Positions 46,700 to 64,000 of a stretch of DNA of 64,000 nt are shown piece by piece. The stretch comes from Candidatus Caldarchaeum sp. (GTDB taxonomy: Archaea > Thermoproteota > Nitrososphaeria_A > Caldarchaeales > Caldarchaeaceae): NCBI GenBank assembly GCA_038885755.1, contig JAVZZH010000001.1, forward strand, positions 96,001 through 160,000. Direction: 5' to 3'. The notes under the pieces were generated by a model. The model ran no database searches. It had not been told where the DNA came from and saw only the letters and a list, made by a program, of their open reading frames with translations. Within the stretch, counting starts at the first letter, position 1. The number at the start of each line of letters is the position of its first letter. Both the position numbers and the translations under genes were made by a program.

Positions 46700-46814
46700 C
46701 AAGACCGTATCAGAGAGCTGAACACGATGAACTCTGCAAAAACACGAGATATTTAAATGTTGAAAACCGACTCGGCGAAAAGTAGATAAAACCAGGAAAA
46801 CAACCATTGAGTGT

Positions 46815-46887
46815 AGCCCCGTCGTCTAGCGGCCAAGGATGCAGGGCTTTGGACCCTGCGACGTGGGTTCAAATCCCACCGGGGCTA
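46815..46887 (+). tRNA. tRNA-Gln(TTG), intronless
   Basis: Acceptor AGCCCCG/CGGGGCT with the A1-U72 pair typical of archaeal tRNA-Gln; anticodon arm CAGGG-CTTTGGA-CCCTG; T arm GTGGG-TTCAAAT-CCCAC. Confidence 0.96.
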
Positions 46888-47194
46888 AGAGAAACAGCAT
46901 GGCCTAAAACCCACCGAATACCTAGGTGTCTATGCACCCTGCTGGGGGGACTAATCTTTTCGGATAGGGCTACGCTAAGCCATGTTCCACCACTTGGAAA
47001 AGAAGAGCGGCTACCAGGGCCCTCTACAACGGGCCAGCAGCCGATCCCGAGTTTTATTGCGGCCGGAGCAATGATCTCAATCCTCTGCAGTCTTTTTCAC
47101 CACCACAGATGTATTAAGGTTTCAAAGCCTTCCCGTTCTGAAAATAGACCTATCACCCACCCACGTATAGCCAAGCACGTGTATCGCTAGCGGT

Positions 47195-50387: not shown

Positions 50388-51905
50388 ATGGTTAGGAAAA
50401 AGTTCGAATATCACATATCCAACGCATCCGAAGTTTCAGCTGCATCGACAGATCCCGCCTCATACACACCGCCTGTAGCCAGAGTTAGCAGGAGAACAGT
50501 CTTGGGGATTGGAGCCGCAGCTGCTGTGGTGGCGGTTGCTGGAGGCGTGGCGGCGTTCTTGGCATCGCGTCCACCAACCCAACCCACGACACAGACAACA
50601 CCAACAGCTACTACGCCAGCCCAGATAACGCTAAGGACCAACGAACAGTCATACATGGTGGATGAGAACAAGATAAAGGCCTTCAAAGAGCAGGTGGGCA
50701 TTCAGCTGGAGGCAGATATACGACCAATAGATGAGGCTCGCGCGATAATGCTGGACCCAGCCAACGCCTCAAAATACGATATCTACGGCATAGACACCAG
50801 CAGCCTCTTGGCGATAAAAGCTGCTGGCGTTACGAAAAACTATCCCCCCAGCGATGTTCCGAGGTGGGTTAGGGGCCCCATTGATCCAATATTCACCGCA
50901 CCAGAGACCAACATAGGAACTAAGGTGCCTCCACCAATCGGCCCAACAGGCGAATACATAGCCAAGAGTATGATGTATCCAACCATGTGGGCTGCCTCAC
51001 CAGATGCGACCAACAAGATGGATGACTATGGAATGAAGGACAAGCTCTTCTTCATATCTCCGATTGACTGGAACTACGACTCGGTGCTCTGGAATCCCAA
51101 GTATATCAACCTACCTTATGACCCGGCCACAGGCATATCCACTGGCTCTTGGGGGGTTCTTGTTGACCGCCAGTACAAAGGCAGGGTTGGCTTCCAAGAC
51201 ATTCCAACGATCTCCACCAACCATTACATACTGATAATGATAGCAAACAAGCTGATAGAGCCACTGGAACGGGGACCAAACGACTTAACCCCCGCTGAGA
51301 TTAAGAAGCTGGTGGACTGGCTTATCGACCACAAGAAGGCGGGCCAGTTCAGGGTATTCTGGAACGACTTCGCCCAGATAGTGAGCCTCCACGTGCAGGA
51401 GGAGATCTGGGTTTCCGACGGCTGGCAGCCAGTTGAGATGTATGTACGCAACAGCGGCGGCATAGGGTTCTACCTAGAGCCCAACGAAGGATACCGGAAC
51501 TGGCTGGATGGCGTCGCACCGACGATAGCTACACCCAACTACGCCGCAGTCATGAATTACATCGACTGGAAGTACAGCGGATGGTTCGCCCAGTATAAGG
51601 CTAAGTGGCTTGGCTACTATACTCCAAACTGGGAGTCGGATGAGGTTAAGCAGACGATGGGGCCGGAGCACTGGGGCTGGTTCTACAAAGCCGACCCAAC
51701 CTTCATAGAAGTGCCTGTGGAGGAGCATGCGGCGTTCGACCCTGTTTCCTACGATTGGAAGATGTCCGGCTCACCCAACCCCAAGGGATATAGGCGGGAC
51801 GGCGGAGACATCAAAAGGCATAACGAGAGGGTTTCCACTTGGCAGCGGTGGCCTCACGACGCTGACGCCTATATAAAGGAGTGGACTAGGCTCAGAGCTG
51901 CTTGA
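50388..51905 (+). CDS. PotD/PotF-like ABC substrate-binding protein with Tat signal
   Basis: Twin-arginine SRRTVL plus hydrophobic helix and Thr/Pro linker; EGYRNW, RDGG; heads the ABC operon. Confidence 0.85.
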   Translation: MVRKKFEYHISNASEVSAASTDPASYTPPVARVSRRTVLGIGAAAAVVAVAGGVAAFLASRPPTQPTTQTTPTATTPAQITLRTNEQSYMVDENKIKAFKEQVGIQLEADIRPIDEARAIMLDPANASKYDIYGIDTSSLLAIKAAGVTKNYPPSDVPRWVRGPIDPIFTAPETNIGTKVPPPIGPTGEYIAKSMMYPTMWAASPDATNKMDDYGMKDKLFFISPIDWNYDSVLWNPKYINLPYDPATGISTGSWGVLVDRQYKGRVGFQDIPTISTNHYILIMIANKLIEPLERGPNDLTPAEIKKLVDWLIDHKKAGQFRVFWNDFAQIVSLHVQEEIWVSDGWQPVEMYVRNSGGIGFYLEPNEGYRNWLDGVAPTIATPNYAAVMNYIDWKYSGWFAQYKAKWLGYYTPNWESDEVKQTMGPEHWGWFYKADPTFIEVPVEEHAAFDPVSYDWKMSGSPNPKGYRRDGGDIKRHNERVSTWQRWPHDADAYIKEWTRLRAA

Positions 51906-51933: not shown

Positions 51934-53052
51934 TTGCCAATGTCCAACAGTGTGGAAGCTGAAAACCTGACAAAGAGATTTGGAAAAACAGTTGCCGTGA
52001 ATAACGTATCCTTTAAGATCAGGAAGGGCGAGTTCTTCTGCATCATAGGGCCGAGCGGATGTGGTAAGACGACAACACTCAGGCTTGTGGCCGGCCTTAT
52101 ACGGCCCGACAGCGGCAAGATATACATAAATGGCGTGGACTACACCAACGTCCCAACACACAAGCGGCCACTGTCAATGGTTTTCCAGACATGGGCGCTT
52201 TTCCCCCACATGACGGTTTATGAGAATGTTGAGTTCGGCCTCAAGATGCGTAATTTAAGCGAGGCCGAGAGGAGGGAGGCCATCAAGTGGGCTTTAGGAC
52301 TTGTTAAGATGGAGGATTTCGCCCACCGGAAGCCTAGAGAGCTTAGCGGGGGGCAGCAGCAACGCGTGGGTATAGCGAGGGCATTGGTGGTCAGGCCTGA
52401 GATACTGTTGTTGGACGAGCCCCTGGGCAACCTCGACTTCAAGCTCCAGCTATGGCTACAGGAGGAGTTGAAGCGGATTCACAAGGTTACTGGCGTTACA
52501 TTCCTGTATGTCACGCATGACCAGAGACAGGCTATGGCGATGGGTGACACGATTATGGTTATGAACATGGGTGTTATCGAGCAGATGGGAACACCTATTG
52601 AACTCTACTCAAACCCCAGCAGTGTGTTTGTAGCCAAGTTCGTGGGCGAGTCCAACATACTCGAGGGAATGGTGAGAGCGGTCGAGGGTGGAAAAGCCTT
52701 GGTGGAGACCCCGCTCACTAACTTTCATCTCCCCAACAACGAGGTTAAGACCGGTGACAGGGTCTGGGTCTTCTGGCGGCCAGAGGACACTTACTTAGGA
52801 CGGGACGCTGAGAGCTCTGAATACAAGTTCAACGGCGAGGTTGTGGACGTGACTACGGCCGGGTCGGTCACAAACTATAAGATTTCAGTCGGCGGACATT
52901 TATTGAAAGCAACGGTTAAGGGTCTCCCGATGGACGGCGTGGAAGCAGGTTCCAAGATACTGCTGGGATGCAAGAATTCATGCCTGAAGCTGATCACTAA
53001 GGCAAGCTCCAGCGGCTTGGCAGATGTTGAGCGGATAATATTGGGCGAGTGA
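51934..53052 (+). CDS. ABC transporter ATPase (PotA-like, with TOBE domain)
   Basis: GPSGCGKT, LSGGQQQR, LLLDEP, VTHD. Confidence 0.95.
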   Translation: MPMSNSVEAENLTKRFGKTVAVNNVSFKIRKGEFFCIIGPSGCGKTTTLRLVAGLIRPDSGKIYINGVDYTNVPTHKRPLSMVFQTWALFPHMTVYENVEFGLKMRNLSEAERREAIKWALGLVKMEDFAHRKPRELSGGQQQRVGIARALVVRPEILLLDEPLGNLDFKLQLWLQEELKRIHKVTGVTFLYVTHDQRQAMAMGDTIMVMNMGVIEQMGTPIELYSNPSSVFVAKFVGESNILEGMVRAVEGGKALVETPLTNFHLPNNEVKTGDRVWVFWRPEDTYLGRDAESSEYKFNGEVVDVTTAGSVTNYKISVGGHLLKATVKGLPMDGVEAGSKILLGCKNSCLKLITKASSSGLADVERIILGE

Positions 53053-53055
53053 AAG

Positions 53056-53922
53056 ATGGGTGAGGCTGCCGCACGACAGAGAACGATAACCCCATACCTG
53101 CTGATGGGGCCTATGTTGGCGACGATAATCGTCTTCCTAGTCGTCCCCTTGGTGATGGTTGGGATTGTCAGCTTCTACACACCCACGGGAACAGGCTACG
53201 CACCCGTTGTGAACGTGGCCAGCTATGTCAGGTTTTTCACTGATCCTACCATATACGGGATTCTCCTCAACACACTAGCCTATTCAGCAATAGTGACGGT
53301 TATGGCCTTCATACTGGCCTACCCGATCGCATACTTCCTGACCATGAAGGTCAGGACCTTCAGGGCCAAGACAATACTGCTGATAGCCATGCTGATACCG
53401 TTCTGGATAGACTTCACAACCCGAGCCCTCTCATGGATTCCATGGCTGGGGATACAGGGAATCATCAACCAAGTTCTGATAAGACTCGGAATACTCCAGG
53501 AGCCCTCACCCATATTCCTCTTCTCACCATTCGCCATGCTCCTCGTCATGATTCAGGGCTATACTCTATTCATGATAGCCCCTATCTTCATAGTTATGAG
53601 CAAGATAGATCCAATACTGTATGAGGCCGCTAAAGTCCTCGGAGCATCACCTATAAAAACCTTCTACCACATCAACCTGAGACTCTCACTGCCCGGAATC
53701 GGTGTGGGAACAGTCTTCGTCTTTCTGTCCGCCGTTGCCGATTTCGCAACCCCACGGTTGATAGGCGGCCTGGTCACGAGCATAGGCCAGGTTATCAGGG
53801 ACCAGGTCGTCTTCCTTAACTTACCGCTCGCCTCCGCAATATCCGTGGTCCTCACTATGATTGCGTTAGCTATAGTGATGACGGTGTTCAAGCTCATGAA
53901 TATTAGGCAGGTATTCGAGTAG
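53056..53922 (+). CDS. ABC permease (PotB-like)
   Basis: Six TM segments; EAAKVLGAS loop. Confidence 0.92.
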   Translation: MGEAAARQRTITPYLLMGPMLATIIVFLVVPLVMVGIVSFYTPTGTGYAPVVNVASYVRFFTDPTIYGILLNTLAYSAIVTVMAFILAYPIAYFLTMKVRTFRAKTILLIAMLIPFWIDFTTRALSWIPWLGIQGIINQVLIRLGILQEPSPIFLFSPFAMLLVMIQGYTLFMIAPIFIVMSKIDPILYEAAKVLGASPIKTFYHINLRLSLPGIGVGTVFVFLSAVADFATPRLIGGLVTSIGQVIRDQVVFLNLPLASAISVVLTMIALAIVMTVFKLMNIRQVFE

Positions 53923-53933
53923 GAGGGGCTGGC

Positions 53934-54728
53934 ATGGCTAGGGACGTATCGAAGATAATACTCGCCCTCTACACCGCTGGCATGGTCTTCTTCATATACG
54001 CACCGATAATCACCATGGTACTCTTCTCATTCAACGGCTCGCCTAGGACTGTACCACCGTTCGACGGGCCAAGCCTGAGATGGTACGAGGTACTCTTCAG
54101 TCAGAAGGTTGTATTGCTGGAGGCCTTCACTAGGTCGATCCTGCTAGCTATCCTGACGATGGTGATAGCAACGCCGCTATTCACTTTTGCAGGACTAGCC
54201 TATAGGAAGCGGTTCAAGGGTGATGAGTTTGCCTTCTACCTGGTTACTATAGGCATAATCATGCCCGGGATAACCTACAGCCTAGGCGTCCTGATATTCT
54301 ATAATACCCTGGGAATGAACGTGTCTCTTTGGACAGGGCTCCCAGTCCACCTCGTCTGGTCTGTCCCATGGGGTCTAATACTAGTGAGGGCTATGATAGA
54401 CCCAAACATCATATATTATGAGGAGGCGGCCAAGACCTTGGGCGCCAGCGACTGGCAGATCTTCAGAAGAATAACCCTCCCCCTCTTCATCCCAGCTATA
54501 TTGGGTGGAGCCCTGTTCGCCTTCACCCTCTCGTTTACAGAGCTCATACGAAGCATCTTCGTAGTATCACCTAATACGCTGCCCTTACAAGTCTTGGCTG
54601 AGGTGACTGTCTGGGGTGTCTCACCCTACATATTCGCCATCGGAAGCCTCATAGTAATCATCTCCCTGGCACTTCTCCTGTTGGCCGGCTTTCTGTTGAG
54701 GGGCGTTTTTGAGAAGCTCCAGATATGA
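53934..54728 (+). CDS. ABC permease (PotC-like)
   Basis: SLRWY, EEAAKTLGAS, FTLSF. Confidence 0.92.
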   Translation: MARDVSKIILALYTAGMVFFIYAPIITMVLFSFNGSPRTVPPFDGPSLRWYEVLFSQKVVLLEAFTRSILLAILTMVIATPLFTFAGLAYRKRFKGDEFAFYLVTIGIIMPGITYSLGVLIFYNTLGMNVSLWTGLPVHLVWSVPWGLILVRAMIDPNIIYYEEAAKTLGASDWQIFRRITLPLFIPAILGGALFAFTLSFTELIRSIFVVSPNTLPLQVLAEVTVWGVSPYIFAIGSLIVIISLALLLLAGFLLRGVFEKLQI

Positions 54729-54767
54729 GATCCACTCAATGGGTCAGAGGCTTGGGTTGAGGTCCAG

Positions 54768-56549
54768 ATGTCTAGGGTGAGACCGACCGACATACCTTCC
54801 GAAAGCCAGATGATAGTATCCTCCATCATCAAGGAGCAGCTGGAACAAGAAAAGGTCAAGTATACTGGTTTCCAGAGGGGTACGATTCTAAAGGACTATG
54901 CTAGGGTTGTGGAGAAAGACCCCGTCCTATTCCACAGCGAATACGTCGTAAGGTTCACGTATGACATGGTGAGGACCGCCATCGGCCCTTTCGGACAGGA
55001 TAAGATGGTCTCAAAAGATTTAGGGGACTCTCCGCCCACGAGGCATGTCTTCATCACCAACGACATATACGAGTTCTTAAGCCTCCTCGAGTTTAAGCAT
55101 CCCATAGCTAAGATTGTGGTGGACTTGGCCAAGTCAGTTGACTCTGAGGTGGGCGACGGTGTGGCAACTTCGGTCCTGCTGGGTTGCTCGCTCGTCCTTC
55201 GTGGATGTGAGCTAGTTAGACATGGCCTGCATCCCACAACGGTTGTTGACGGCTATGCCAGGGCCCTTAAATTAAGCTTGTTAAGCTTGGAGAGAAACTC
55301 AGTAGCAGTCTCTATGCATGATGAGCGGCTCCTAGAGTCTGTCGCATCCTCGGCCATAAGGAACAAGTCCGCCGAAGGTATAGAGCCCGACGTGGTCAGG
55401 CGTGTAGTTAAAGTCTTCAACAATCTTAGAAACTCTGCCGGTAGCTATCTCGACCTAGCCAATCTGAAGATTGAAAGGACCATAGGGTCATCCCTTGAGG
55501 AGACAATTTTCGTTGACGGCGTGATTCTAAGGAATGAGGTTATACATGATGGTATGCCCAAGAGGGTAGTGGACGGGAAAGTAGCCCTCATATCCAAGCC
55601 GATAGTCACCCGCGACTTTAACAAGCCCATAGGCTATGACGATGTAGTGTTTGAGTTTGAGGAGCCAACCGCATATAGAAGCTATTCGAGTTATAGGGAG
55701 AAAGTTCTCAGAGAGGCTGCCAGCCATATCATCGCCTCGGGTGCAAGCGTCCTTTTCCTCAGTCAGGGGATAGATGAGATAGCTATAGACCTTCTGGTGA
55801 AGAAGGGTATTCTAGCGGTTAGGAGGATAGTCCCCGAAGACATGGAAAGGCTGGCGAGAGCCACCAAAGGCATAATAGTGGCAACTCCATCCCAGCTCAG
55901 GCCCGAGCATCTTGGGAGGGCCCGGCTTGTGGAGGAGAAGAAGATAGGTGATAGCGAGTGGGTCTTCGTCGTTGGTGTGGGTGGTGGAGGTCCACAATCC
56001 ATACTGTTGACAGCCCCTCACGATGAGTATGCCAGGGATGCTGAGCACCTGTTGATGAATTCGCTGAGGGCGCTGGCAAGCCTCCAGAGGGAGCCACGTG
56101 TTGTTGCGGGTGGCGGAGTAGCTCTCTTTGACGCTGCGGTGAATTTGAGGGAATGGGCTTGGAGTGAGGCGGGTAAGACCCCGCTTGCTGTGGAGAAGTT
56201 TGCAGATGCTTTGGAGGATGTCCACAAATCCATTGTGGAGAACGCCGGATATGACGCATTAGAGGTAGCTGCCGAGGTGAGGCGGATGCATGCTGCCGGA
56301 GTCCATGATTATGGGTTTGATGTGATGACGGGCCAGTACGCCCGCTTCATATCAGAGGGTATTCTAGATCCGCTCCCTGTTGTTAGGCAGGCCTTGGTCG
56401 CGGCTTTCGAGTTCGCTGTTCTTGTCCTGAGGACAGACGGCATATACTACATACCGAGGACGAGGAGAGAACTGATGGAGAAGAGAAAGGCTGAGAGGAA
56501 GAGGAAGGGGAAGAGGCCTGGAGACTGGGTTGAGGAGAAACAGTACTAA
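54768..56549 (+). CDS. Divergent group II chaperonin (thermosome-like subunit)
   Basis: GP.G.DKM, ITND, HP.AK, EVGDG, G.HPT, MPKRV, GI.AVRR, VAGGG, ENAG, GILDP. Confidence 0.9.
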   Translation: MSRVRPTDIPSESQMIVSSIIKEQLEQEKVKYTGFQRGTILKDYARVVEKDPVLFHSEYVVRFTYDMVRTAIGPFGQDKMVSKDLGDSPPTRHVFITNDIYEFLSLLEFKHPIAKIVVDLAKSVDSEVGDGVATSVLLGCSLVLRGCELVRHGLHPTTVVDGYARALKLSLLSLERNSVAVSMHDERLLESVASSAIRNKSAEGIEPDVVRRVVKVFNNLRNSAGSYLDLANLKIERTIGSSLEETIFVDGVILRNEVIHDGMPKRVVDGKVALISKPIVTRDFNKPIGYDDVVFEFEEPTAYRSYSSYREKVLREAASHIIASGASVLFLSQGIDEIAIDLLVKKGILAVRRIVPEDMERLARATKGIIVATPSQLRPEHLGRARLVEEKKIGDSEWVFVVGVGGGGPQSILLTAPHDEYARDAEHLLMNSLRALASLQREPRVVAGGGVALFDAAVNLREWAWSEAGKTPLAVEKFADALEDVHKSIVENAGYDALEVAAEVRRMHAAGVHDYGFDVMTGQYARFISEGILDPLPVVRQALVAAFEFAVLVLRTDGIYYIPRTRRELMEKRKAERKRKGKRPGDWVEEKQY

Positions 56550-56557
56550 CTGATACC

Positions 56558-56853
56558 GTCAAGTTATCTTTAGGGGGGTTTGTGAAGCCGCTTTTTGTAG
56601 GTGGTGTTCATCAGGTGGCTTAAAGCTCTTGAGAATAGTGGTAAGGGCCCCGGGATTGCTGAAGCCCTTAAGCCCCCGCCTTAACAGATTCGTAGAACCT
56701 TCGGCGAGAGCAACAGCGTTGAAAGATGGTTTAGAGGCCATGACTGGACGCTTCTCCAACAACTTCCTAGTTAAGGCTCTTCATCTAATGGTGTAGCTTC
56801 ATGAAGCCGCATCAGAACCCTGAAAAGGTCGATAGCAACGCCAATCACTTGAT
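56558..56853 (+). mobile_element. Internally deleted IS6-family remnant (MITE-like)
   Basis: Residual transposase peptide RTFGESNSVERWFR..(fs)..RFSNNF; imperfect inverted ends TCAAGTTAT (56559) and ATCACTTGA (56844). Confidence 0.6.
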
Positions 56854-56889
56854 AACGCTTAAATATTACACGTATACTCCTAATAATAT

Positions 56890-57771
56890 ATGGCTGAGAA
56901 GGAGATATTTGTTGGTTTTGGGGTTGACGTGGATGCCGTTGCTGGTTGGATAGGCTCCTACGGAGGTGAGGACTCGCCGTCAGACATACAACGTGGCATC
57001 TTCGCGGGTGAAGTTGGGACGCCGCGGCTTTTGAAGCTCTTTAAAAAGGTTGGGTTGAAGACAAGTTGGTTTTGGCCAGGACATTCGATAGAGACGTTCC
57101 CCGAGCAGTTCAGGATGTGTGTCGATGAGGGGCATGAGATAGGAGCCCACGGATACACACATGAGAACCCGATAGCTATGACGCCCGAGCAGGAGGAGGC
57201 GGTTCTGGCCAAGTGTGTATCGCTCATAAAAGCTGAGACAGGTAAGAGCCCCCGCGGCTATGTGGCTCCGTGGTGGGAGATGTCTAACAACACTATAGAC
57301 CTACTGCTGAAGTATGGCTTCAAATACGACCACAGTCAGCACCATCATGACTTCCAGCCCTACTACGCTAGAAGGAGGGACACATGGACAAAGATAGACT
57401 ATTCGAAGCACCCCGATACTTGGATGAAACCGCTCATTAGAGGGGCTGAGGTTGACCTCGTGGAAATACCCGGCAACTGGTATATGGATGACCTGCCGCC
57501 CATGATGTTCATAAAGAAAGCGCCCAACAGTCATGGGTGGGTAAGCCCGAGAGATATCGAGATTTTGTGGAGAGACCAGTTCGACTGGGTTTACCGGGAG
57601 TATGACTACGCAGTCTACTGTTTCACAATACATCCCGATGTCAGCGGCAGGCCTCAGAACCTTCTGATGCTCGAGAGGCTGATAAGATACATCAACAAAC
57701 ATAGGGGCGTTATCTGGGCTACGATGGAGGAGATAGCTGAAGATTTTCGAAGGAGACATCCACGTAAGTGA
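56890..57771 (+). CDS. Polysaccharide deacetylase (CE4) family, HP0310/PgdA-like; putative cyclic imide/amide hydrolase
   Basis: [49 protein letters not shown]. Confidence 0.9.
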
Positions 57772-57789: not shown

Positions 57790-58629
57790 CTATGTTTGCT
57801 GGACTAGCTCGCTGTATAGCTCGGGCGACCTATCCCTCAGAAACGGTGCATATCTGCGTCTCTCCCTTACAAAATCAAGGTCCAGTTCATGGACCAGGAC
57901 ATACTCCTCACTGGGTGCAATGGCAAGCCGTTCTCCCTTAGGATTGAATATGCAGCTTTTTCCAAAATACGTGGCTGGCTGCTCTGGAAACTCTCTCCCA
58001 CACCTGTTAACGCCGCAGACATATATTGTGTTGAATGCGGCGTGGGCTGCCAGCTCCAGCTCCCACAGCTCTGGATAAAGGCCGGTGCATGTTGGTACGA
58101 AAACTATTTCCGCTCCCTTAACAGCCATTATCCGGGGTCCTTCGGGGAAGTGCCTGTCATAGCAAATTATCACGCCAAACCTAACACCCTGGTCTTGGAA
58201 GACTGGGTATCCTAAGTTGCCCATCCTGAAGTAGAATTTCTCACTGTATCCGATGAGCTGGGGTATGTGGGTCTTCCGATACTTCCCGATAAGCTCGCCC
58301 CTGTGGCTGATTATGGCTGCGGTGTTGTAGAAGGTTCCAGGAACAGTTGTGTCCTCTTCAAACATAGGAGCTATGACTGTGACACCGTATTTATTGGCCG
58401 CCTCAGCCAGCTTGGCTGTGGTGGGTCCGGGTATAGGTTCGGCCAGTGAGAAGAACTCGATCCTCTGCTGCACGGCGAAGTATTGAGAGAAGAATAGCTC
58501 CTGCAGACATACGATCTTGGCGCCCTTTCCAGCAGCCTCACCTATGAGACCCACCGCCTTATCCACGTTCCTCTCCTTCTCCTTCTCCGCGTTCATCTGG
58601 ATGAGTCCTACCTTGACTGTGCGGCCCAT
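57790..58629 (-). CDS. Nitrilase-superfamily amidohydrolase (beta-ureidopropionase/N-carbamoylputrescine amidase-like)
   Basis: Glu-Lys-Cys triad in LQELF, YRKTHIP and ICYDRHFPE; EKFYF. Confidence 0.9.
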   Translation of the reverse strand: MGRTVKVGLIQMNAEKEKERNVDKAVGLIGEAAGKGAKIVCLQELFFSQYFAVQQRIEFFSLAEPIPGPTTAKLAEAANKYGVTVIAPMFEEDTTVPGTFYNTAAIISHRGELIGKYRKTHIPQLIGYSEKFYFRMGNLGYPVFQDQGVRFGVIICYDRHFPEGPRIMAVKGAEIVFVPTCTGLYPELWELELAAHAAFNTIYVCGVNRCGREFPEQPATYFGKSCIFNPKGERLAIAPSEEYVLVHELDLDFVRERRRYAPFLRDRSPELYSELVQQT

Positions 58630-58633
58630 TGTG

Positions 58634-59662
58634 TCAACTCATTTTAGGCTGATATTTATAACTGTCGGATATCTCGCCAGCAATGTTAGAGAGCATAAGG
58701 CTTCTCACATCCCCTCCCTGCCCCAAACACCACATGAGTTTGACCAGGGCGGTTTCCGGCAGCATGTCAGAAGTTGGAATGATGTTTTTGACGGCTAGAA
58801 TCTTCTTATCCAGAGCATATACACCCAGCTTCTCACCACCGTAGAGGCATTGTGTGGTAATGACGACAGGCCTCCCATAGTCCTCCACCACACCGATGAA
58901 TTTATCGTCGCTCTTTATGTGGCCGAGTCCGGTGCCCTCCACCACTACACCGTCGTAGAGTGATAAGATTTTAGCCATAGCCTCGTCTGTTAGGGATGGA
59001 GTCATTTTTATCAGCCCCACGTTGGGGTTGAGCTCCGTCTTCAGATATGCTCTGCTCTCCCCCCTTCTGACTCTTTTCTTCACATCGAGATGTATGGTCT
59101 CACCCACCACATGTCCGAGAGGTTCCTCATTTACGCTGGCGAATGCGTTTAAAGCGTGGGAGTGGATCTTCTTGGCCCTCGTCCCCTTGATGATCACTTT
59201 TCTCCCTCCGAACGCGTCCTCTGAGAAGACCACGCAAACATGGCCCAGATCTGCATACGCTGCAACTCTTAGAGCTGCCTTGACATTACCCGGTCCATCG
59301 CTGCCTGGGTTGCCTCCCGGTATCATAGCACCTGTCAAGACAACCGGGACCTCTGGATATCCCAGCATGAAGCTGAGGGCGGAGGCCGTATACTGCAGAG
59401 TGTCGGTTCCATGTAAGACCACCACACCGTCCACACCCTCTTGGAGAGATTTGTAGACAGAATTGGCCACGGCCTGCCAGTCGCTAGGTGTGAAGTCGAA
59501 GCTGGCCTTCACCATTATCTCCCGTATCTCATAGTCCACGCCCTCCACGGATATTTCAGGGAATGTCTGCTTGTAGGATAGTATCTCGGCGCCTGCCTTG
59601 GCGTCAAATGTCTTAGACAGTATGGTCCCGCCGGTGGCTAGGACATGTACATGCTTGGCCAT
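58634..59662 (-). CDS. L-asparaginase-family (type I/GatD-like) amidohydrolase
   Basis: ATGGTI, HGTDT, K.HS, GTGLGH, DM.PETA.VKL.W; start moved to ATG 59662. Confidence 0.88.
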   Translation of the reverse strand: MAKHVHVLATGGTILSKTFDAKAGAEILSYKQTFPEISVEGVDYEIREIMVKASFDFTPSDWQAVANSVYKSLQEGVDGVVVLHGTDTLQYTASALSFMLGYPEVPVVLTGAMIPGGNPGSDGPGNVKAALRVAAYADLGHVCVVFSEDAFGGRKVIIKGTRAKKIHSHALNAFASVNEEPLGHVVGETIHLDVKKRVRRGESRAYLKTELNPNVGLIKMTPSLTDEAMAKILSLYDGVVVEGTGLGHIKSDDKFIGVVEDYGRPVVITTQCLYGGEKLGVYALDKKILAVKNIIPTSDMLPETALVKLMWCLGQGGDVRSLMLSNIAGEISDSYKYQPKMS

Positions 59663-59679
59663 GGCTATGAAAAACTCAC

Positions 59680-59697
59680 TAACAATATTTATTGTTA
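59680..59697. promoter_or_regulatory. Perfect inverted repeat in the divergent promoter region
   Basis: TAACAAT-ATTT-ATTGTTA between the asparaginase-like and cyclodeaminase-like genes. Confidence 0.4.
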
Positions 59698-59762
59698 AGT
59701 GTGCCGGCGCCAAAGCCATATATCAACGCCGCGGCAGCCCACCCGCGACGGATTGGCAGCAT

Positions 59763-60725
59763 ATGATTGTTAGCGGTGATGAGATGAAGGGTCTTGTCTC
59801 CATGGATGAGGTGATATCTCTTGTGGAGCAGGCTTATGCTGCTCATGCAAGGGGGCTATGTATCATGCAGCCGAAGACCCAGCTAATCATAGAGAAGTAC
59901 TCTGGCGAGTGGGAGGCCATGCCATCCTATCTAGGAGAGCCGGAATCATCAGCATGTAAGTGGGTGGCTATCAGGGAGAGGAATAGGGAGAGTTTCGGAC
60001 CCCCCACAGTCATGTCCACCGTAGTATACACTGACCCGGAGACGGGATACTCGCTGATGATTTGTGACGGCACCTATCACACAAATATGCGGACAGAAGC
60101 CGCTGCGGCGGTCTCAGCTAAGTGGATGGCGAGGCGGGACTCCAAAGTGGCTGTCGGAACACTTAGGGCCCTGAATAGCTTGAACATGTTTAGGAAAGTG
60201 CTGGTGTGGAGTGGGAATAGGGAGAATGCTGACAGCTTCGTCGAACGTATGCAGGCGGAGGTGTCGATGGAACTTGCAGTTGTTAACAGCGTCCGCGATG
60301 TGGTGGCTGACTCGGATGTGGTTGTTACCCAGACACCCGCTACTGAGCCGGTGGTTAAGGATGAGTGGGTGCGGGAGGGGACACATATCGCAGTCATGGG
60401 TGCCGACATGGAGGGTAAGCAGGAGCTTGAGGGTAAGCTGCTGAAGAGGAGCCGTATCTTCGTGGACGACTTGAGTCAGTGTATTAGGGACGGGGAGATT
60501 AATGTCCCGCTCAGGAAGGGTGAGGTCAGGGTTGAGGACGTGGCGGGAACCATCGGCGAGATAATAATAGGTAGGAAGATAGGAAGGCTCTCCCAAGACG
60601 ATATCACTGTCTTCGACTCCACTGTAATAGCTCTGCGGGACGCCGCTGTAACCACGCTTGAGTATAAACGGGCTAGGGAAAGGGGTGTGGGCGTGGAGAA
60701 GAGGATGATCGTATCGCAAACCTAG
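59763..60725 (+). pseudogene. Alanine dehydrogenase/ornithine cyclodeaminase-like gene with in-frame loss of the Rossmann motif
   Basis: The ORF is intact but reads ARRDSKV-AVGTLRAL with no GxGxxA; RTEAA and FDSTVIALRD replace RTGAA and FDSTGLA.QD. Confidence 0.65.
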
Positions 60726-61960
60726 GAAGCCAGCTGGAGGATAGTGTGTAGGAGAACGTTGGCTCCCGCTTCAACGTCTCTAGGCTCGGTCCACTCATCA
60801 GGCGCATGGCTGACTCCATCACGGCTCGGAACAAATATCATGCCCACATCAGCTATCCTAGCCATGTTCTGGGTATCGTGAACAGCGCCGCTTGGCATCA
60901 ACCTGTGGCTGATACCCAGCTTCTCCACAGATGCCAGTATCGCCTCCATCACTGTTTTAGACATAGGTGTCGGCTCCAGTCTCGCCCGCTCAGTAACGGT
61001 GTAGGATAGTCCAAGCCCCTTGAGGGTCTCGTCCACATACTCCAAAATCCTCTTCCTAGACTCGCTGAGGCGCTCCCGCGATATATCCCTGAAGTCGATG
61101 CTCATCTCAGCCTTGTTGGATATCACGTTGATGGCGGAGGGATATACTCGGATCAAGCCTACAGTGCCGAAAACACCCGCCCCAGCCTCCCTAGCCATTC
61201 TATTGATCTCGAGAGCAATCCTAGAGACGCCTATCACCGGGTCTCTCCTGAACTCCATGGGAGTTGTCCCCGCATGGCCCGACCTTCCGACAATCTCCAG
61301 CAGCCACTGGCTTATCCCGGCGATGCCTTGAACAACCCCGATACTTTCCCCCTTGCTGTGAAGCAATGGTCCCTGCTCTATATGTAGCTCGACCCAGGCC
61401 TTGAACTCACCCCGCCTTCTCACCGGCTCCGATAGATGCTCCGGTTCCAGCCCACCCCTTCTCAGAGCCTCCAAGTATGTGATTCCTGAGTCATCTGTTT
61501 GGCTGTAAGCCTCTTCAAGCTTCAGGCTCCCTGTGGCAACCCTGCTGCCAGTCATGAGGGGGAACCTGACACCCTCCTCATTACTGAACGATATGAGCTC
61601 CAGGGGATGTCTAGTGGTTATGTTGTAAGCGTTCAGCGTCCTTATCACTTCAAGTCCTGAGAGGACGCCTAGACAGCCGTCGAACATTCCGGCGTTGGGC
61701 ACAGTGTCTATGTGGGAGCCTAGCCCCACCACGGGCAGGGAGTTATCCTCTCCCTTCCTACGTCCTAATATGTTGCCCGCTCTGTCTATGCGGACTTCGA
61801 GCCCCGCTTCACGCATCTTGGATATTAGGAGGCTCCTAGCCCTGTGGTCCTCCATGCTGAGCGCGAGCCTCGTCCTACCCCCTCCCGCTGTCTCACCTAT
61901 CTTACTGAACTCAATCAGGTCTGACCAGATCCTGTCTAGGGAAACCCTGGGATCGGTCAG
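60722..61960 (-). CDS. Zn-dependent M20 N-carbamoyl-amino-acid amidohydrolase (HyuC/beta-ureidopropionase type), probable CTG start
   Basis: GSHIDTVP.AG.FDG..G, NEEG.RF, ELHIEQGP, HAGTTPM, SGA.HD, SH.PDE; family-like N-terminus (RIWSDL..FS.IG...GG.TRLALS) extends upstream of ATG 61855. Confidence 0.88.
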   Translation of the reverse strand: MTDPRVSLDRIWSDLIEFSKIGETAGGGRTRLALSMEDHRARSLLISKMREAGLEVRIDRAGNILGRRKGEDNSLPVVGLGSHIDTVPNAGMFDGCLGVLSGLEVIRTLNAYNITTRHPLELISFSNEEGVRFPLMTGSRVATGSLKLEEAYSQTDDSGITYLEALRRGGLEPEHLSEPVRRRGEFKAWVELHIEQGPLLHSKGESIGVVQGIAGISQWLLEIVGRSGHAGTTPMEFRRDPVIGVSRIALEINRMAREAGAGVFGTVGLIRVYPSAINVISNKAEMSIDFRDISRERLSESRKRILEYVDETLKGLGLSYTVTERARLEPTPMSKTVMEAILASVEKLGISHRLMPSGAVHDTQNMARIADVGMIFVPSRDGVSHAPDEWTEPRDVEAGANVLLHTILQLAS

Positions 61961-61966
61961 CGTTGT

Positions 61967-63376
61967 TCACCTAGCGCTGTTGAGGACTTGCTCATCTATC
62001 TTGGCCTTCACAAACCGTCCTATGCCAGGCCTCCCCAGGAACTGTTCGTTATCCACTATTATTTCACCACGGAGGATGGTCATGGACGGCCAGCCTTTAA
62101 CCCTCATACCCTCGTAAACACTTAGGTCAGTCCCCATGTGTAGATTCTTGGCGTCTAAGGAGTGCTCCCTGTTGGGATCTATTATGACTAAGTCCGCGTC
62201 CGCGCCGGGAGCTATCACACCCTTCTGAGGATAGAGGCCGAATATCTTGGCGGCGTTTGTGCTTACCACATCAACAAATCGTGTTAGGGTCATCCCACGC
62301 CTGATCACCCCCTCGTAGAACATGAGTGGGACGCGTACTTCCGAGCCTGGGAACCCATTGGGTATCTTGGTGAATATTCCAGCGAACTCCTCCTTCTGGC
62401 TCTTGGTGAATGCCACGTGGTCGGAGCCTATGGTCTGGATCTTGCCTCCCATCACAGCCCGCCATAACGCCTCCACATCCTCTTTCTTCCTTAGAGGTGG
62501 GCTGCACATGTAGTATATTCCCCTCTCAGGTGGTTCGAACGTTTCATCCGTTAACACTAGGTAGTGGGGACAAGTCTCCACGAAGACAGGCAGCCCTTTC
62601 AAACGGTACTGGGCCACTATCTCATGCCCCTCACGAGTGGATTGGTGGACAATGTATGTTCTCGCACCTGTTATCTCAGCTATGTTCATCGCCATTAGAA
62701 TAGCTAGGTTCTCCACCATATTGGGCTTGGCTTGGCCGTGGTATCTGGGCTCTACCCTCCCCCCATTCACGAACTCCTCCTGCATCCCCTCACCTATGAA
62801 GCCGTTCTCAGCATGAATAGTGACGACGCCTCCCAGCTCCCTCGCCCTACGCATCACTTGGAAGAGAATCCAGTCATCAGCCATCCAGCCCTGATGCCTG
62901 TATATCATGAAGACCTTGAAACCTGGGACACCATAGTCCATGGCCTCCTTCATACCCTTCATCACCCTGCCCATGTCTGAGAAGTCGCTGATGATCGGCT
63001 TTGTGGTGAAGTCTATCACTGAGAGCTGTCCAGCCCTCTCCATCTGCTTCTTGGTGGCGTCGAGCAGGGACTCGCCCTTCTCCTGGGGTGCAAAGTCGAT
63101 CGTAGTTGTCGTACCGCCGATGGCAGACGCTATAGTACCGATATCCCATGTCTCCCGAGGCTTCGCACCCATAAAATACAGCTCATAGTGGGTGTGGGGA
63201 TCTATCCCGCCGGGTATGACTATTTTGCCACGGGCGTTGACAGTCTTCTCAGCGCTAGCCGAGGCAAGACTACCCACATGAACGATTTTTCCATCTGAGA
63301 CGCCAATATCTGTTTCAGCAACCCATCCGGGACCGACTACAGTTCCCCCGGATATGACCAAATCCAGTCTAGACAA
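61967..63376 (-). CDS. hydA: Dihydropyrimidinase / D-hydantoinase
   Basis: PGGIDPHTH, GGTTT..DF, FKVFM, HAEN, ETCPHYL, SPPLR, GSDH, IPNG. Confidence 0.92.
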   Translation of the reverse strand: MSRLDLVISGGTVVGPGWVAETDIGVSDGKIVHVGSLASASAEKTVNARGKIVIPGGIDPHTHYELYFMGAKPRETWDIGTIASAIGGTTTTIDFAPQEKGESLLDATKKQMERAGQLSVIDFTTKPIISDFSDMGRVMKGMKEAMDYGVPGFKVFMIYRHQGWMADDWILFQVMRRARELGGVVTIHAENGFIGEGMQEEFVNGGRVEPRYHGQAKPNMVENLAILMAMNIAEITGARTYIVHQSTREGHEIVAQYRLKGLPVFVETCPHYLVLTDETFEPPERGIYYMCSPPLRKKEDVEALWRAVMGGKIQTIGSDHVAFTKSQKEEFAGIFTKIPNGFPGSEVRVPLMFYEGVIRRGMTLTRFVDVVSTNAAKIFGLYPQKGVIAPGADADLVIIDPNREHSLDAKNLHMGTDLSVYEGMRVKGWPSMTILRGEIIVDNEQFLGRPGIGRFVKAKIDEQVLNSAR

Positions 63377-63945: not shown

Positions 63946-64000
63946 GAGTTGTCCTTAGTCCACGTGTGCAGACCTAACACCATGAACCATCCGTAAGTGC

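Follow-up and report, generated by a model that had tools for sequence, protein, structure and literature searches.

Archaeal group II chaperonin subunits, of which a species encodes one to five, all form the hexadecameric thermosome as far as is known, according to the consulted part of a 2017 review (PMC5220055). Here, we analyzed a thermosome-like gene in a 64,000-nucleotide stretch of Candidatus Caldarchaeum sp. (contig JAVZZH010000001.1, positions 96,001 to 160,000; this whole stretch is called the window, and coordinates refer to it). The gene (54768..56549, + strand) encodes P0001, a protein that, judged from alignments and a predicted model, is thermosome-derived and has kept the group II chaperonin fold while losing the residues for ATP turnover, and that is encoded at the end of an operon for an ATP-binding cassette (ABC) importer. 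Like the solved archaeal thermosomes (1q3r/1q2v, Mm-cpn 3rus/3kfb, and 1a6d), P0001 has three domains and a built-in lid (TM scores of 0.89-0.93, 31-37% identity), and it keeps their GP, DKM, TND, P-loop Asp, GGG, and DP motifs. Unlike them, it has lost the Thr pair of GDGTT and the catalytic Asp, carries insertions, an N-terminal extension, and a basic tail, and scores below the NCBIfam cut-offs, while its gene family resides within an ABC importer operon and is patchy rather than universal in its distribution.

Several other systems invite comparison. The eukaryotic BBS proteins are thought to serve one specific assembly rather than to act as general foldases. The consulted part of one study describes MKKS/BBS6, BBS10, BBS12, and CCT8L as having degenerate hydrolysis motifs and a conserved Gly-Pro and as evolving much faster than canonical subunits (PMC2846930); set beside that description, P0001 likewise combines a degenerate hydrolysis site, a retained Gly-Pro, and accelerated evolution. 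It differs from BBS6/10/12 in its independent origin, which is from an archaeal thermosome rather than CCT8-related, and in having a candidate client that is defined by its operon. We know of no link between the P0001 family and CCT-like co-assembly. The chlamydial GroEL2 and GroEL3 (NF038369/NF038370), whose models match P0001 weakly, are likewise additional chaperonins whose ATP sites are altered and whose roles are presumed to be specialized; unlike P0001, these are group I, bacterial, and without a fixed transporter context. The redox enzyme maturation proteins (REMPs) of the twin-arginine translocation (Tat) pathway, such as TorD, DmsD, and NarJ, are small, entirely helical, and bind the signal peptides of cofactor enzymes. 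By analogy, P0001 would be a cytoplasmic factor that is encoded beside its Tat-exported client and holds it until it is export-competent; unlike the REMPs, it has a 65-kDa chaperonin fold and not a TorD-like one, and its candidate client is a cofactor-less solute-binding protein (SBP). The present data cover the co-encoding with a twin-arginine SBP. Finally, the importer resembles the spermidine/putrescine importer PotABCD in its TOBE ATPase, its two BPD_transp_1 permeases, and its PotD-related SBP. Unlike PotD, the window SBP is ~150 amino acids longer, falls below Pfam thresholds, and carries a predicted Tat signal, and the neighboring enzymes suggest a cyclic amide or ureide as the substrate. 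To our knowledge, a chaperonin-like fifth gene belongs to no described Pot system, and our literature search, with subscription journals and bioRxiv supplements outside its scope, turned up no account of a thermosome paralogue linked to Tat or to an ABC importer.

Fold and ATP site of P0001

The open reading frame (ORF) was confirmed as genuine by an ORF and translation check, and the coordinates that an initial annotation of this DNA had assigned to its P-loop (G129-T134) and to N431 proved exact. Its features are the following:

54768..56549, + strand: thermosome-like pseudo-chaperonin gene of clade A (P0001), 593 amino acids, ATG start
54768..54872, + strand: family-specific N-terminal extension, about residues 1-35, with a predicted helix at 12-27 (profile alignment, AlphaFold2)
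55029..55046, + strand: 6-residue insertion (residues 88-93), placed between LGD and V.ITND of the equatorial hairpin and one of the best-conserved clade A stretches
55152..55169, + strand: degenerate P-loop GDGVAT (G129-T134), with Val and Ala in place of both Thr of GDGTT
55611..55658, + strand: remodelled lid stretch RDFNKPIGYDDVVFEF (residues 282-297) with a 5-residue insertion, conserved in clade A, of low AlphaFold2 confidence
56058..56060, + strand: Asn431, at the position of the intermediate-domain catalytic Asp (alignment)
56445..56546, + strand: basic C-terminal tail (residues 560-593) ending in ...PGDWVEEKQY, the most conserved part of clade A

The whole-length domain match to PF00118 (Cpn60_TCP1) scored 371 bits over residues 66-559, and the two other matches to this Pfam model in the source genome (1.33 Mb in 10 contigs, 86.5% complete) were canonical thermosome genes with 634 and 600 bits; the thermosome alpha and beta genes of this genome lie at C3:76969-78441 and C1:386079-387551. 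P0001 stayed under all NCBIfam thermosome cut-offs (thermosome_beta 380 versus 400, thermosome_alpha 371 versus 450, thermosome_arch 358 versus 671), and CCT models scored it lower (167-237 bits versus 358-380 for the thermosome models). Its best relatives outside its own clade, here called clade A, were archaeal thermosomes (316-321 bits) and not CCT subunits. The AlphaFold2 model (pLDDT 86, pTM 0.80) superposed in Foldseek on the Thermococcus KS-1 and M. maripaludis chaperonins with TM scores of 0.92-0.93 (0.93 to 1q3r), and it predicts the three-domain fold with a helical-protrusion lid, including the lid helix 300-324; the lid loop (281-300), the linker that follows the N-terminal helix, and the nine C-terminal residues are modelled with low confidence. 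The domain score, model confidence, and superposition agree with the initial annotation, which had recognized a full-length thermosome-fold gene.

Upon aligning the residues by phmmer to solved chaperonins (9rwp ACII, Thermococcus KS-1 1q3s/1q2v), we found GDGVAT in place of the GDGTT(T/S) P-loop, with the P-loop Asp retained and Val132 and Ala133 at the Thr pair, as well as TNDIYEFL where chaperonins have TNDGATIL. The helix that reads ...IDDAL or LEDAV... in those proteins reads ...LMNSL in P0001, its second Asp being replaced by Asn431. Asn431 thereby stands where chaperonins have the catalytic Asp of the ER..xDA helix motif; this intermediate-domain Asp is the catalytic base in Mm-cpn and GroEL, and the titles of matched PDB entries name a D386A pre-hydrolysis state. 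All three substitutions had been proposed from the sequence, and the proper alignment bore them out without bringing the Asp back. The remodelled lid with its insertion and the Lys/Arg-rich C-terminal tail, helical at 566-579 in the model, were likewise recovered, and the N-terminal extension is present but shorter than the ~40 amino acids proposed, at ~30-35 by profile alignment (profile position 25 pairs with residue 60).

The consequences of such changes have been studied in the T. acidophilum thermosome. The consulted part of that work (PMC5983026) reports that replacing the last Thr of GDGTT by Val blocks ATP binding and destabilizes the subunit, that a subunit mutated at this Thr no longer forms alpha8beta8 hetero-oligomers, that a binding-dead subunit type abolishes the ATPase of the entire thermosome, and that the thermosome without ATP still aids refolding by holding unfolded chains. 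As the Thr pair and the intermediate-domain Asp are replaced in P0001, we infer by analogy with these mutants that it runs no ATP cycle and is unlikely to mix into the housekeeping ring. This bears on the possibility, raised in the initial annotation, that P0001 is a third thermosome subunit that co-assembles with alpha and beta and lends the housekeeping ring a client-specific apical domain. The full thermosome fold obtained with AlphaFold2 and Foldseek and the two canonical subunits in the genome would suit such a role, as would the example of CCT, whose rings can contain subunits of unequal ATP use. In P0001, however, the stem-loop insertion and both termini are altered, and these elements form the intra-ring sheet in chaperonins. 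The exclusion of the mutated T. acidophilum subunit from hetero-oligomers and the halt of ATP cycling in the whole ring, as far as the consulted part of the study goes (PMC5983026), also argue against co-assembly. Hence, we consider a third subunit very unlikely, and an ordinary gamma-type thermosome subunit was rejected on these mutant data and on the altered stem-loop and termini.

A word-indexed search of 5.8 billion proteins delimited clade A as 10 proteins of 49-100% identity, below which the next matches, ordinary thermosomes, dropped to 37%; the hit names assign its members to Caldarchaeales/Aigarchaeota. Across the 10-row alignment, GDGVA (which includes the P-loop Asp), Asn431, TND, GP, DKM, the sensor-loop Lys, GGG, and DP are all invariant. 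The presence of GDGVA and N431 in 10/10 members indicates that the degenerate features are not due to chance. In the deeper A members P0127 and P0128, the catalytic position is Asn and Lys, respectively. Conservation within clade A, taken as pairwise identity in 20-residue windows (mean 0.61), was distributed over the protein as follows:

C-terminal tail: 0.76-0.84
Stem-loop insertion: 0.76
Apical domain: 0.61-0.73
C-terminal equatorial half: 0.48-0.59
Intermediate domain: 0.37-0.48

A conserved apical domain, lid, and termini next to a relaxed equatorial machinery would fit a binding module.

Pairing of the chaperonin-like gene with an importer

The gene stands in the following operon context:

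50388..51905, + strand: SBP, 505 amino acids, divergent PotD-derived, with twin-arginine signal and Thr/Pro linker, operon gene 1 (translation, profile)
51934..53052, + strand: PotA-like ABC ATPase (ABC_tran + TOBE_2; Pfam)
53056..53922, + strand: permease 1, Perm1 (BPD_transp_1; Pfam)
53934..54728, + strand: permease 2, Perm2 (BPD_transp_1; Pfam)
54759..54763, + strand: Shine-Dalgarno-like GAGGT, 4 nt before the ATG, in the 39-nt spacer (sequence)
56591..56598, + strand: T-tract (CTTTTTGT), 42 nt after the stop, possible archaeal terminator (inferred from sequence)
56890..57771, + strand: CE4 polysaccharide-deacetylase-like gene (Pfam)

Pfam and profile matches identify an importer with an ABC_tran plus TOBE ATPase, two BPD_transp_1 permeases, and a PotD-type SBP, and the five genes follow each other in the order SBP-ATPase-Perm1-Perm2-chaperonin with gaps of 28, 3, 11, and 39 nt. 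The ORF map and Pfam thus place the P0001 gene fifth in the operon, 39 nt after the second permease and on the same strand, as had been proposed. Inspection of the 39-nt spacer revealed the GAGGT and no AT-rich TATA-like box, which would suit an operon-internal gene, while the CE4 gene has an AT-rich TATA-like box of its own at ~56859-56867 (~25 nt before its ATG) and follows after a gap of 340 nt. Given this spacer, the T-tract, the gap, and the CE4 box, the P0001 gene would close the importer operon, and CE4 is probably a separate transcription unit. In an RNA library (X1), identical contigs cover parts of all five operon genes, including two pieces within the P0001 gene; as DNA carry-over is possible, this match is weak evidence, and contigs of this kind indicate presence in the library and allow no inference on co-transcription or expression level. 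No X1 contig bridges 54728-54768, parts of the P0001 gene are uncovered, and no contig of a second run (X2) could be placed. Scans for sigma-70 promoters (7 versus 7.2 expected) and intrinsic terminators (5 versus 5.8), whose models are ill-suited to archaea, stayed at background, and Rfam gave no match in the 340-nt gap.

Scanning genomes and metagenome contigs yielded five related clade A loci, two from genomes and three from metagenome contigs, of which two are 99% alike; the five come from close relatives. The SBP-ATPase-Perm1-Perm2-chaperonin order was kept in 5/5, so that clade A accompanies the same SBP/ABC cluster, as the neighborhood comparison proposed in the initial annotation was meant to establish. 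CE4 comes after the chaperonin-like gene in 4/4 loci that reach beyond it (L027 stops inside it), at a spacing that varies from ~50-60 nt (L028/L029) through 340 nt in the window (56550-56889) to ~750 nt (L030/L031), and the loci that reach further have the identical catabolic gene set and order as the window. Identity to the window was 77-93% for the neighbors and 63-80% for the chaperonin-like protein.

Selection was estimated from nonsynonymous (dN) and synonymous (dS) divergence by the Nei-Gojobori method, for which dS was saturated in most pairs and only the pairs window-L027 and L029-L030 were usable. The chaperonin-like gene had a dN/dS of 0.10 (window versus L027, dS 1.15) and 0.07 (L029 versus L030), and neighbor genes had 0.03-0.13, with the dN of the chaperonin-like gene 2-4 times that of the transporter genes. 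At a dN/dS of ~0.1 and this elevated dN, the gene is constrained yet fast-evolving. Its higher dN and lower identity are what one would expect of a decaying or neutral duplicate without function, but the ratio of ~0.1 denotes purifying selection, no locus read has a broken frame, conservation peaks in the family-specific features, and the family persists with the importer across deep divergence, which makes this explanation scarcely credible; a pseudogene was rejected on the ratio and the intact frames. Between L029 and L030, dS was ~1.9 for the chaperonin-like gene and CE4, versus 0.26-0.85 across the four transporter genes and 0.40 in the CN hydrolase gene, a contrast that suggests that recombination has swapped the chaperonin-CE4 segment between lineages.

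A second, deeper clade accompanies a paralogous copy of the same importer. Distant homologues of the window SBP (24-32% identity) were found in 10 of 40 relatives, which are exactly the genomes with a second thermosome-like gene (22-28% identity, 593-622 amino acids) adjoining the SBP gene; we call these chaperonin-like proteins clade B. The importer parts of clade B are overall 24-43% identical to those of the window (ATPase 36-43%, Perm1 35-39%, Perm2 30-36%). In 9/9 loci read, the clade B gene adjoins Perm2 and/or lies tail-to-tail with the SBP gene, in three arrangements. In family f1, nitroreductase, DUF6092, S-Me-THD, hydantoinase A, racemase, ATPase, Perm1, Perm2, and the chaperonin-like gene follow each other on one strand with the SBP gene convergent; in family f4, the chaperonin-like gene is convergent with ATPase-Perm1-Perm2-SBP; and in family f2, it is tail-to-tail with the SBP gene, the ATPase and permeases being 4 kb distant. 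Two genomes (G014 and G017) hold both modules, each with its own chaperonin-like gene. The P-loops of clade B include GDGAVY, GDHSVY, GSGAVS, and GGGAAS, the Asp of MDKM is mostly lost, and the catalytic position is Asp or Glu in 6 of 15 rows and otherwise H, S, N, C, G (twice), R, S, or L. The convergent 3' ends of the chaperonin-like and SBP genes lie between 29 nt apart and 8 nt overlapping (L044-L049, L079, L080), so that the two transcripts probably overlap at their 3' ends. Two further observations concern single clade B loci. A phage-type integrase gene (L045:4257-5351, genome G013) lies ~3 kb from a module, and such modules may travel on integrative elements. At G031:C15:42396-43487, an SBP homologue with an in-frame TGA, either a broken gene or a sequencing error, lies beside an intact 611-amino acid chaperonin-like frame.

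We quantified co-occurrence in an even sample of 401 Thermoproteota genomes, 60 from the order (Caldarchaeales) and 341 from outside, scoring three candidates per genome at a family threshold of >500 bits and counting absences as "not found". The chaperonin-like family and the SBP family occurred in the same 14 of 60 order genomes, and neither was found in the other 46; the two genes adjoin in 13 of these 14, and in the remaining one (G035) each sits at a contig end. Outside the order, the SBP family was present in 2/341 genomes (G382 and G054), and no chaperonin-like gene exceeded 500 bits. G382 has SBP-Perm1-Perm2 convergent with a 576-amino acid chaperonin-like gene that scores 383 bits, and from this low score it follows that the threshold misses distant members. 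By co-occurrence and gene adjacency, the lineage belongs as a fixed accessory gene to a single PotABCD-like importer family, with one private chaperonin-like gene per importer paralogue. Judged from their annotated neighbors, these importers sit in cyclic-amide (hydantoin- or creatinine-type) catabolic clusters of Caldarchaeales and of at least one other Thermoproteota lineage.

In a quick IQ-TREE tree built from core columns only (55 rows, 490 columns, with long branches), clade A had 100% support, with P0001 among archaeal sequences. Clades A and B, together with one row labelled canonical, split from 30 canonical sequences and other paralogues with an SH-aLRT of 86. A resemblance noted by eye between "YY.PRT" in the tails of clade A and "YY.KRT" in those of clade B was set aside, as hhalign did not support it.

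The arrangement of genes also bears on the main alternative to a chaperone role, namely a role on the cytoplasmic side of the importer, in which the chaperonin-like protein would be an accessory or regulatory subunit that docks on the ATPase/TOBE or the permeases and possibly senses ligand through its remodelled pocket. In clade A and in family f1 of clade B, the gene follows Perm2 on the same strand (gap of 39 nt down to overlap), clade A holds most nucleotide-contacting motifs in a fixed altered state, and the conserved charged tail could dock. Yet in four genomes (G328, G345, G020, and G023) the gene runs tail-to-tail with the SBP gene instead of sharing the direction of the ATPase and permease genes, the ATPase and permeases are ~4 kb off in G328 and G345, no ATPase homologue was found in the 20 kb read of G382, and the nucleotide pocket is not conserved across clade B. 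We regard such a subunit as unlikely.

The binding protein as candidate client

The window SBP begins with a predicted Tat signal, SRRTVLG followed by an h-region, whose R35 and R36 are invariant in 10/10 family members; all 10 aligned SBPs share an S/T-R-R-x-F/V-L/I motif, an h-region, and a Thr/Pro linker, and TatC is encoded in the source genome. Its profile matches PotD (1pot/8y5h) with an E value of 2.7e-11 over ~165 positions, Pfam gives a sub-threshold SBP_bac_6 match only, and an AlphaFold2 model from the 10-row alignment was unusable (pLDDT 32). The source genome encodes 11 other SBPs (2 SBP_bac_5 and 9 full-length Peripla_BP_6), 5 of which carry a twin-arginine motif with an h-region, the Tat-type SBP at C6:28693-29739 being an example.

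A dedicated chaperone could alternatively serve the catabolic enzymes of the cluster, such as the cyclic amidohydrolase or hydantoinase, and the initial annotation had named metallo-amidohydrolases as possible clients. The enzymes are indeed close by: the window module lies amid genes for an amidohydrolase, a CN hydrolase, and an M20 peptidase, clade B modules lie amid HyuA-like hydantoinase, S-Me-THD, and hydantoin racemase genes, and elsewhere creatininase, isochorismatase, and creatinase-like M24 genes are found. The enzyme families vary between modules, however, while the ABC parts are constant, and CE4 and the other enzymes of the window are separate transcription units or lie on the opposite strand. 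This weakens the enzymes as clients, and we think it quite unlikely that they are served.

As the importer genes are the sole constant partners, and as the SBP gene is the nearest neighbor in 3/4 arrangements, the most likely client would be the large, divergent SBP precursor, which would have to fold in the cytoplasm before Tat export. We propose that the proteins of the P0001 lineage are importer-dedicated binding factors (holdases or assembly factors) that run no ATP cycle, that the conserved apical domain, lid, and termini form their interface with the client or partner, and that P0001 more likely acts alone, be it as a monomer or a homo-oligomer, than within the housekeeping thermosome. 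We are evenly divided on whether this reading, an ATP-independent and importer-dedicated holdase or assembly factor with the SBP precursor as the most likely client, is correct. More specifically, and in our view rather doubtfully, a chaperonin ring or subunit free of a nucleotide cycle could be an obligatory fifth importer component and a chaperonin-type Tat escort, which would take up the oversized PotD-like SBP precursor, allow its folding, and hand it over to TatC; every importer paralogue would then have co-evolved its private chaperonin.

Several points weigh against a holdase for the SBP. In G054, which is 91% complete, a 5.3-kb contig carries the SBP gene at its edge, and a chaperonin-like gene of the family type was not found in this genome. 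A tail-less thermosome paralogue does occur in G054 (the sole genome looked at in this respect), where it is not beside the importer; such further paralogues, of ~530-545 amino acids and 28-32% identity to P0001, lie at G024:C50:20065-21558, G018:C1:1467081-1468571, G009:C1:643521-645014, and G054:C13:13862-15547, the last match crossing two stops with a 544-amino acid frame covering most of it. The branch that separates clades A and B from the rest is not strong in the tree described above, with its long branches. An hhalign comparison of the tails and N-terminal extensions of the two clades aligned canonical helices only (probability 64% and 59%). Most of the clade A synteny comes from close relatives with neighbors at 77-93% identity. 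The Tat signal is not distinctive of this SBP, given the 5 of 11 other SBPs that carry one, and 0/11 of these lie near any of the genome's three chaperonin-family matches. Furthermore, the clade A gene follows a permease gene and is three genes away from the SBP gene, so that the partner could be another transporter part, and the motifs that clade A keeps would still permit nucleotide binding or a nucleotide-regulated role.

The pathway-dedicated pseudo-chaperonin that the initial annotation proposed thus stands as a conserved, ATPase-impaired gene that is not decaying (dN/dS ~0.1, 5/5 loci, Asp not restored), with unequal support for the three roles it had offered. The Tat-exported SBP would fit best as a client, its signal alone not being distinctive, and the specificity subunit of the housekeeping thermosome was weakened by the P-loop mutant data in the consulted part of PMC5983026.

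Distribution, genomic surroundings, and meaning

A profile search against 1.84 billion representatives returned about a dozen full-length family-type matches above or among the canonical thermosomes, one of them labelled Hecatellales, and the ESM Atlas returned generic Cpn60_TCP1 clusters only. Two proteins, P0133 (WP_455367899.1, of the chaperonin-like family type) and P0303 (of the SBP family), are both labelled [Eubacterium] cellulosolvens, which reflects either archaeal contamination of a bacterial assembly or transfer to a bacterium. P0124 and P0125 (~1050 amino acids) match the chaperonin profile twice and look like tandem fused group II chaperonins. P0010 and P0298 come from contigs of equal length (16051), as do P0128 and P0299 (15413), which may be a coincidence.

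The window module lies in an accessory island, to which the following features also belong:

46814..46888, + strand: tRNA-Gln(ttg), left edge of the accessory island (ARAGORN; synteny break)
57790..63376, mixed strands: catabolic genes for CN hydrolase (-), asparaginase (-), ornithine cyclodeaminase-like protein (+), M20 peptidase (-), and cyclic amidohydrolase (-) (Pfam)

DNA synteny with three same-genus genomes (~70% nucleotide identity) reaches through the tRNA-Gln gene and then ends, the G+C content falls to 0.51-0.52 in the island, and the P0001 gene and the SBP gene were absent from 12/12 same-genus genomes compared. The island also holds biotin genes (BPL, BioY) and a class III aminotransferase gene after the tRNA-Gln, and it reaches at least position 64000, its right edge lying beyond the window. 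No integrase was found in the source genome, nor an att-like repeat of the tRNA-Gln end. The consulted part of a study of metagenome-assembled genomes tabulates an "archaeal chaperonin" as a heat-tolerance gene of predicted prophage regions, together with N-methylhydantoinase A and hydantoin racemase (PMC10547907).

What is new here is comparative, namely clade A, the pattern of paired chaperonin and importer paralogues, the linkage to an SBP with a Tat signal, and the co-occurrence counts. Family genes are labelled "thermosome subunit beta" or "GroEL", which makes them an annotation trap. Archaeal group II paralogues are usually viewed as interchangeable thermosome subunits, and here a lineage has abandoned the ATP machinery yet stays under selection. 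It is a rare case in which the genome itself names the likely client of a chaperonin-like protein, and it opens two questions to testing, namely how a chaperonin fold can operate in the absence of an ATP cycle and which properties make a client depend on a chaperonin. In evolutionary terms, the lineage is an independent parallel of the BBS pseudo-chaperonins of eukaryotes, and if the Tat escort proposed above were true, it would be the first client-dedicated pseudo-chaperonin in a prokaryote, an archaeal counterpart of BBS6/10/12.

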